A stretch of DNA of 64,000 nucleotides from Escherichia coli (GCF_051903065.1 NZ_CP178438.1), one strand, 5' to 3'; shown: positions 9,985-11,248, numbered from the stretch's first letter. The notes: generated by a model from the sequence alone, not told the origin. A program made the numbers and translations.

Positions 9985-11248
9985 TTATTCCGCACAGCCG
10001 TAGCGATAGGCGCGCAAAACATCATAAATTTTATCCATAATCAGCTGATGCGGTATTGCTGATAATTCCCCGGACTGAATGCGTTCAAATTGTTTGGGAA
10101 GATACTGACTAATCATGCCCAGTGGGATGTCCACGCCTTGCAGATTCACCATCATCGTTTCAACGCTATTTTTAATCCGACTATGCGGCCAGTAATAACG
10201 AATACGATCCGACAGGCTGTAACGAATATCCAGTAATGAATCGTTAAAACCCGTGCGATAATATTTTTTTCCAGTATTGCGGTTCGTCGAGCATCACTTC
10301 TTCAATTACCGCCAGGCAACCGCTGCGATTTTCGGGGGCGATAAGTTCCTGCTCAATTTGTGCCAGTGCAAATATCGCCTCGCGTAAAGCAAAGGTTAAT
10401 GCGGGACCGACTTTCAATATTGCAAAGTGATCGCGGACTAATTCCCAATAAGCCGTCCGGGTCTGGTAATCGGTAGAATGTGCTTCATAAACCATTCGGG
10501 TGTTTTCTATCCATTGCGCCAGCGCCTGCGCTTCCTGCGGCTGATAATGGATAATATTGCTGTGATCAAATTCCACACCCGGCTGCACCACGATGGCAAT
10601 CACACGTGTTAACGCCTCTGTCAGCCCACGGGCAATAAAGGCCTTTTGATGCGTACGTAAAGTATTGGCGGCATCTTCAACATGGGTGATGTGTACTGAC
10701 TGAATGGCGCTGGCCTCACCGCCCGGAACCGGAACTTCGGTGCCAATGACATAGCTCAGTTGCTCACGCTGGCAATCTGTCACCACACTTTCCGCAGCAA
10801 AGCAAAGCACAGCAGCTCGTTCCGCAACCGTTTCTGGTGCTAACGGTATGGGATCCCCCGCGCAGGACATTGACGCATCAAGATGAATTTTACTGAAGCC
10901 AGCACGAACATATGCCTTTACCAGCTCGACGGATTTTTCCATTGCCGCATCCGCATTTTCTTGCTGCCAGCAGTTTGGCCCCAGATGGTCTCCGCCGAGA
11001 ATAATGCGCTCGCGCGCAAATCCGACTTTATCGGCAATCGTAAAAACAAATTCGCGAAAGTCTGCCGGTGTCATTCCGGTATAACCGCCAAATTGATTGA
11101 CCTGGTTTGACGTTGCTTCAATCAGCACTTTGCGCGTGCTGTTGCGATCAAATGCCAGCGCCGCTTCGATAACCAACGGATGGGCAGAACAGACTGAACA
11201 TATGCCGATATGTTCACCAGCTTTATGCCGGGCAATTAACGTTTTCAT
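9985..11248 (-). pseudogene. gatZ: gatZ (tagatose-bisphosphate aldolase non-catalytic subunit) with +1 frameshift in an A7 run
   Basis: 334-aa ORF ends ...[11 protein letters not shown]; the C-terminal ~86 aa continue in another frame down to TAA at 9985-9987; span is 1264 nt = 1263+1; shift localised to the T7/A7 run at 10264-10270. Confidence 0.8.

Follow-up and report, generated by a model that had tools for sequence, protein, structure and literature searches.

In the mouse gut, mutants of Escherichia coli that have lost galactitol use (gat-negative) sweep with s ~0.07, and galactitol inhibits their gat-constitutive ancestor (PMC3945185). These sweeps were recorded with MG1655, in which gatR is disrupted by an IS and the gat operon is constitutive (PMC3945185, PMC5850726). 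A gatR-restored strain behaved differently, yielding no gat-negative mutants in 19 days and gatR knock-outs instead (PMC5850726). Galactitol use varies among the natural enterobacteria of humans and mice, and in five of nine humans sampled the dominant enterobacteria were gat-negative (PMC5850726). Within the operon, gatZ is a high-value and recurrent mutational target in glucose-limited chemostats (PMC12366229), and K-12 mutants null for gatZ are gat-negative (PMC3945185).

As for frameshifts in homopolymeric runs, "pseudogenes" rescued by slippage have been described at runs of nine A's or nine T's, and selection against slippery runs becomes noticeable at a length of ~9 nt (Baranov et al. 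2005, PMC1088944). The transcription errors associated with runs in E. coli are insertions, of the deletions made during transcription fewer than 1% begin in a homopolymer, and no restoration of reading frames was detected (PMC5574713). Here we describe a gatZ gene that carries an extra A in such a run, in a natural E. coli lineage with an intact gatR.

A one-base insertion in gatZ

We analyzed a 64,000-nt stretch of E. coli DNA (GCF_051903065.1, NZ_CP178438.1), hereafter the window, in which the gat genes are found on the minus strand in the canonical order gatY, gatZ, gatA, gatB, gatC, gatD and gatR. All the products of this operon except GatZ give full-length matches to their own family models. 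GatY (11277..12131, 284 aa) spans positions 1-284 of the 284 in the tagatose-bisphosphate aldolase model, GatA (9523..9975) spans 1-150 of 150 and GatB (9208..9492) 1-94 of 94, and GatC (7849..9204) and GatD (6761..7801) are likewise intact. The repressor gene gatR (5882..6655), described as intact in the sequence-only reading with which this work began, indeed encodes a 257-aa protein matching the DeoR family over its full length, free of the IS disruption seen in K-12.

The exception, gatZ (9985..11248, minus strand), measures 1264 bp instead of the expected 1263 bp. The additional base belongs to a run of seven A's (10264..10270, minus strand, gatZ nt 979-985), where the wild type has six that encode Lys327-Lys328 (AAA AAA). 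In the mRNA sense, the run is found in the context CAATACTGG AAAAAAA TATTATCGC, the seven A's corresponding to window positions 10270-10264. It had been claimed from the sequence that deleting one A restores a 420-aa GatZ ending just before gatA, and this claim is exact to the base. Translated in the +1 frame from 10272, the gene continues to ...RAYRYGCAE and a stop ending at 9985, 10 bases before the gatA ATG (9975). The repaired protein aligns over residues 1-420, with three substitutions, to PDB 2FIQ, the solved structure of E. coli GatZ. Among the GatZ family models considered (NCBIfam NF011626, TIGR02810 and Pfam PF08013), it covers positions 1-420 of the 421 in the equivalog model NF011626, with 907 bits.

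The frame that is actually open (10244..11248, minus strand) covers positions 1-333 of the same 421, with 711 bits, which is above the curated cut-off of 579; no single frame gives full-length coverage, the rest of the profile being matched in the +1 frame. This open frame has 334 codons, as first reported, and ends at a premature TAA stop (10244-10246). However, the shift occurs earlier than the 334 codons had been taken to imply: residue 328 (...QYWKK) is the last native one, and the six that follow up to the stop, 329-334 (ILSHGF), are read out of frame. The remainder of the gene (9985..10263, minus strand) encodes residues 329-420 (YYRTGF...YGCAE) in the +1 frame, up to the canonical stop. 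Truncation thus costs GatZ its 92 C-terminal residues, that is, 22% of a single-domain protein. Within the remainder there is an orphan 56-aa ORF (MMVNLQGV...CAE; 9985..10155, minus strand), a by-product of the split gene whose upstream sequence, GTTGAAACGATG, contains no obvious Shine-Dalgarno motif.

Upstream of gatY, an IS1397 of ~1432 bp (12354..13785, plus strand, with ends uncertain by up to ~4 nt) occupies a REP/palindromic unit that lies just downstream of fbaB. A terminator-like hairpin followed by a T-run (12253..12274, minus strand) lies between this element and the gatY promoter region. Closer to gatY is a sigma-70 promoter-like site, TCGACA-18-CATTAT (12167..12196, minus strand), identified by its match to the consensus; taken alone it is weak evidence, since one such site was found before gatY and 1.1 would be expected in shuffled sequences. 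IS1397 is thus located outside the gat promoter and operon. We considered an influence of the element on gat expression and rejected it, because the hairpin separates the IS from gatY and the promoter-like site lies downstream of the IS, on the gatY side.

The same REP upstream of gatY has received an independent, rearranged IS3-family insertion in strain SCU-316 (NZ_CP054371.1, 2927762-2941922). In this genome, the far side of the IS carries eco, yojO and nap genes instead of fbaB, a sign of an IS-associated rearrangement; frameshift flags are attached to eco and yojO, and gatZ is intact. Being independent, the SCU-316 insertion is uninformative on the order in which IS1397 and A7 arose, and we dropped it as a guide to that order.

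Inheritance of the A7 allele in one clone

When the lesion was first read, a sequencing error was left as a possible explanation and closely related genomes were suggested for comparison. Such relatives have the same A7. The 1264-bp gatZ is identical in the RefSeq complete genomes 23CRST027 and 23CRST031 (NZ_AP045789, NZ_AP045800), both from human faeces in Ecuador, and a third complete genome with A7, ECNB21-M121, comes from meat in China; PGAP labels gatZ "frameshifted" in the A7 complete genomes. Over the ~62 kb shared with 23CRST027, the window shows two SNPs and two differences by IS insertion, since it lacks the IS903B and IS1A copies that 23CRST027 has in yehB. The exact 334-aa product is found on ~94 contigs (110 index blocks) across NCBI, ENA and Logan, short-read assemblies such as ERR3985198 and SRR14298974 among them, and A7 was verified in every retrieved locus with the truncated product (L001-L003, L005-L009, L014 and L021).

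That the true run is A6, the extra A being a homopolymer miscall of sequencing or assembly, is an idea to which we attach virtually no credence. Miscalls do occur at this site in poor assemblies (two of which, L019 and L020, are discussed below), but three complete genomes that come from two laboratories and two continents share this A7, its exact product recurs on independent contigs that include Illumina-type Logan assemblies, and the A7 contigs show no other indels when compared with one another. The caveat of a sequencing error can therefore be removed.

Members of the clone differ from one another by 0-5 SNPs per 5-13 kb, and ~220 nt upstream of gatY their loci all continue into one and the same end of IS1397. 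Because all A7 carriers share IS1397 between fbaB and gatY, they represent one clone, of which this element is a marker and the A7 allele an inherited one, on at least two continents and in human and meat sources. Among complete genomes, the IS1397 junction is found in the three with A7, with SCU-316 as an independent event. Where the 80-nt flanks of the run are identical, complete E. coli genomes have A6 in 452 cases, A7 in three and A5 in none; these counts, made with 79-81-nt probes for which only exact matches reach the ≥99% identity band, pertain to identical-flank genomes, ~4,300 genomes with SNPs in the flanks falling outside them. The gatZ gene of the window is therefore a real, inherited and ordinary frameshift pseudogene. 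It is of a well-known kind and already flagged in public annotation, and its novelty is low.

The fimbrial usher gene yehB (24790-27285, minus strand) is an intact 831-aa ORF in the window and is broken in 23CRST027 by IS903B (1055 bp) and IS1A (768 bp); the window therefore derives from another member of the clone. A gene with a DUF4132 domain (~32834-36636, plus strand), possibly the molR-type pseudogene of K-12, has a sequence-identical counterpart in 23CRST027 that is annotated as frameshifted. The truncated GatZ falls into a 90%-identity protein cluster that is represented by a GatY protein and consists mostly of GatY members. The two proteins were probably chained together via fused gene calls, such as a 631-aa product in L019, which is a caveat for cluster-level statistics.

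Parts of the clone have acquired further lesions in the gat genes. ECNB21-M121 has a second frameshift in gatZ, a -1 at nt 87. A sub-branch (GCA_949766195.1 and GCA_022972935.1; loci L005, L007 and L014) carries gatB E25* (GAG>TAG, a G>T at window position 9420), a second knock-out in the same operon that would abolish galactitol uptake. In SRR14298974 (L009), a G>T alters the Shine-Dalgarno sequence of gatY (CAGGAT>CATGAT) and one base is missing from an A5 run of the gatY leader (window positions 12141 and 12187). Besides these lesions, the comparison of clone members showed one missense and two synonymous changes. The secondary lesions, few and drawn from a sample of ~ten loci, fit an operon that may no longer be under purifying selection.

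These lesions also bear on the possibility that transcriptional slippage or ribosomal frameshifting on A7 yields enough full-length GatZ for the gene to be functionally intact. Although A-runs are prone to slippage and rescued cases at 9A/9T are known (PMC1088944), restoring the gatZ frame needs a 1-nt deletion in the mRNA (or a +2), which goes against the insertion bias of E. coli (PMC5574713), and the run is 7 nt long as against a threshold of ~9 nt (PMC1088944). Moreover, the shifted arrangement is not conserved, as the 452 A6 against three A7 genomes with identical flanks show, and inactivating lesions have later piled up in the operon. Nor does the locus look like a programmed frameshift, the two-frame arrangement lacking conservation and the tract length and slippage direction being unsuitable; PGAP marks gatZ as a pseudogene and not as a programmed frameshift. 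We regard such rescue as highly improbable.

Recurrent indels at the run and its A6 relatives

Apart from the A6 run, no homopolymer in wild-type gatZ is longer than 5 nt. The run has gained a base on a second background. L017, a clean draft with a divergent haplotype, shows A7 with SNPs 52 nt upstream and 9 nt downstream of it, together with Q49* and a 5-bp deletion, and in its relative L018 the same base is added and TGG>TGA (W326*) occurs as well. A run shortened to A5 is found as an exact match in six complete-genome records, such as 2013C-3033, O39:NM F8704-2 and MSB1_1D, on haplotypes that differ by 7-12 substitutions in gatZ. PGAP flags gatZ as "frameshifted" in two A5 carriers, 2013C-3033 and HCP8S3_I1. 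While 2013C-3033 and L022 look clean as A5 cases, HCP8S3_I1 is doubtful, since two -1 homopolymer deletions in its gatC may reflect a noisy assembly. Two other candidates were not counted as independent events because their contigs carry 7-9 other homopolymer indels: the A7 of L019 comes with nine +1 homopolymer insertions, including a context consistent with A7, and the A5 of L020 comes with many -1 deletions. The run has thus been hit independently in unrelated lineages, at least one more time to A7 and at least twice to A5.

Other gatZ disruptions are widespread. W353* (RIRYY*PHS) occurs in two gatZ haplotypes that are 26 substitutions apart, represented by L016 and by L023, the latter standing for at least ten similar places, as a result of either recurrence or recombination. 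The orphan 56-aa C-terminal ORF has been called on 344 contigs and therefore marks many different gatZ disruptions, and a gatZ match is missing altogether from ~6% of complete genomes. Natural gatZ pseudogenes are consequently frequent, and this run gains or loses bases repeatedly, as the longest homopolymer of the gene should.

Some nearly identical relatives of the A7 clone have a six-base run. The exact repaired 420-aa GatZ is encoded on 6-8 contigs, for example in GCA_051321145.1 and SRR34500237, and over 6.4 kb these genomes differ from the window by A6 and a single synonymous SNP in gatC. They retain the last 8 nt of the gatY-proximal IS1397 end, at which an IS21-family element (IstB fragment, GATCGAA repeats) is inserted (L012:1-287, L013:1-31). 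The A6/IS1397 genomes belong to the same IS1397-bearing lineage as the window, either as a sister branch that diverged before the frameshift arose or as revertants. The SNPs and IS junctions shared over the 6.4 kb include no sites informative on whether A6 is ancestral or reverted; a sister branch is more parsimonious because it needs one change in the run instead of two.

Were these genomes revertants, the gatZ run would be a slow, reversible switch for galactitol use in nature, moving between A6 and A5 or A7 at a low rate as hosts or diets change. Its behavior would then mirror in nature the "recurrent reverse evolution" of the gatC 1-bp insertion in mice, where reversion or compensation of gat-negative 1-bp insertions takes place in vivo at 9.7e-9 per generation (PMC5850726). 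The occurrence of the repaired protein one gatC SNP away from the window, next to an IS1397 remnant, speaks for such a switch. However, the extra IS21-family insertion and the private SNP of the A6 genomes are found in no sampled A7 contig, no derived SNP ties these genomes to any subset of the A7 genomes, and a branch that split before the frameshift requires a single change. In addition, A7 is far shorter than classical contingency tracts, and the sub-branches with second lesions could not revert in one step. A switch of this kind is therefore unlikely, and we favor a sister branch that kept the ancestral A6.

Function, selection and comparison with described systems

How much function is left in the truncated protein bears on the phenotype of the clone. 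The residues proposed to form the active site of GatZ are C20, E44, D87, H88, E171, H257 and K279 (PMC11907403), and all seven are retained in the truncated protein, so that some residual activity of the 328-residue fragment is conceivable. Loss of GatZ function is nevertheless likely, because the 92 C-terminal residues, 22% of a single-domain protein, are gone. GatY reportedly needs GatZ for full activity and stability, a result attributed to Brinkkötter et al. in 2002, whom PMC11907403 and PMC12366229 cite. That the strain would be galactitol-negative was predicted from the sequence, which is reasonable because gatZ-null K-12 is gat-negative (PMC3945185), and by analogy the clone as a whole probably shares this phenotype.

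A related enzyme system is encoded in the sister genome 23CRST027, where kbaZ and kbaY are intact in an aga cluster controlled by AgaR. The cluster (L025:15251-26737; 3760251-3771737) is complete, with 13 genes free of pseudogene flags: agaR, kbaZ, agaVWEF, nagA, agaS, kbaY, agaBCD and agaI. K-12 differs in this respect, its aga/kba cluster being partly deleted. The kbaZ and kbaY genes might substitute in part when induced by N-acetylgalactosamine; for the F6P/T6P epimerase function, gatZ is replaceable by kbaZ (PMC11907403).

Taken together, these data make one history highly probable: a single slippage insertion, inherited vertically, made gatZ a pseudogene in a clone that is expected to be galactitol-negative. 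Replication slippage would have added one A to the longest homopolymer of gatZ (A6 to A7), once, in an ancestor that presumably already carried IS1397 between fbaB and gatY, and the A7 allele would then have been passed on vertically to a clone whose present-day members come from humans and meat on at least two continents. The predicted effect is a shift of frame after Lys328, six wrong residues and a stop, with loss of the C-terminal 92 residues, which would block or strongly impair the galactitol pathway after the GatD step. The gat lesions that later arose in sub-branches would fit an operon no longer maintained by selection.

Whether selection favored the frameshift is a separate question. 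The sequence-only reading had raised the possibility of an adaptive lesion, citing the loss of gat functions during gut colonization. As stated, that argument is not supported: the published sweeps took place in gatR-null strains, the gatR-restored strain produced none, and gatR of the window is intact, so the published selective scenario is not directly transferable. A wider form of the idea is that the frameshift was positively selected in the gut and that the later lesions in gatB and in the gatY leader were selected against uptake of a substrate that had become toxic. It draws on the mouse sweeps (s ~0.07) and the inhibition of the gat-constitutive ancestor by galactitol (PMC3945185), on the status of gatZ as a target in glucose-limited chemostats (PMC12366229), on gat-negative dominance in five of nine humans (PMC5850726), and on the recurrence of indels at the run and the wide distribution of other gatZ nulls (W353*, the orphan ORF on 344 contigs); the clone itself is also successful and widespread. 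However, the experiments all used K-12 with gatR::IS, and gat-negative mutants did not appear once gatR was restored. Recurrence of indels at the run is by itself no proof of selection, because mutation bias predicts the same for the longest homopolymer. The frequency of the allele is equally explained by a single origin and hitch-hiking in a clone linked to carbapenem resistance (a blaNDM-5 plasmid is carried by ECNB21-M121). Positive selection is thus possible but rather unlikely, mutation bias at the homopolymer combined with hitch-hiking in a successful clone being a sufficient explanation.

The importance of the gatZ finding is modest, and it reveals no new mechanism. It provides a clean natural homopolymer frameshift in the gat operon, fixed in a widespread and partly carbapenemase-associated clone, with follow-on decay of neighboring gat genes. 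The mildly interesting angles are the intact gatR, the follow-on lesions and a possible natural A6/A7 pair. Laboratory evidence that gat loss is selected was obtained in a strain lacking a functional gatR, and the A7 allele stands in a gatR-intact background; the A7 clone and its A6/IS1397 relatives could therefore serve as a natural isogenic pair for asking whether gat loss is beneficial, neutral or reversible under regulation. The A7 run together with the IS1397 junction is also a simple lineage marker that predicts a dulcitol/galactitol-negative biotype.

How does the allele compare with described systems? KbaZ and KbaY are of the same family (GatZ_KbaZ-like, PF08013), but they are encoded at a separate locus under AgaR control, which is not the gene affected here, and both the truncated and the repaired GatZ match the KbaZ model below its cut-off. 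The cases of Baranov et al. 2005 (PMC1088944) likewise involve a frameshift in an A-run within a coding sequence. Their runs, however, have a length of at least ~9 and regain the frame through inserted A's, whereas the run in the window has seven and would have to lose one, and such deletions are rare in E. coli (PMC5574713). The other natural gatZ pseudogenes affect the same gene, partly at the same site; they are independent events, while the allele of the window is defined by A7, its own haplotype and the IS1397 marker. The expected phenotype, no galactitol use, is the same for the gat-negative alleles of mouse-evolved K-12 (Barroso-Batista et al. 2014, PMC3945185; Sousa et al. 2017, PMC5850726). 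These are losses in gatYZABCD that include small indels and gatZ, the best-studied example being a 1-bp insertion in gatC. They arose in a gatR::IS constitutive background, 79% of them being IS insertions with polar effects, and were followed over weeks. In contrast, the allele described here is a homopolymer +1 in gatZ next to an intact gatR, fixed in a natural and geographically widespread clone.
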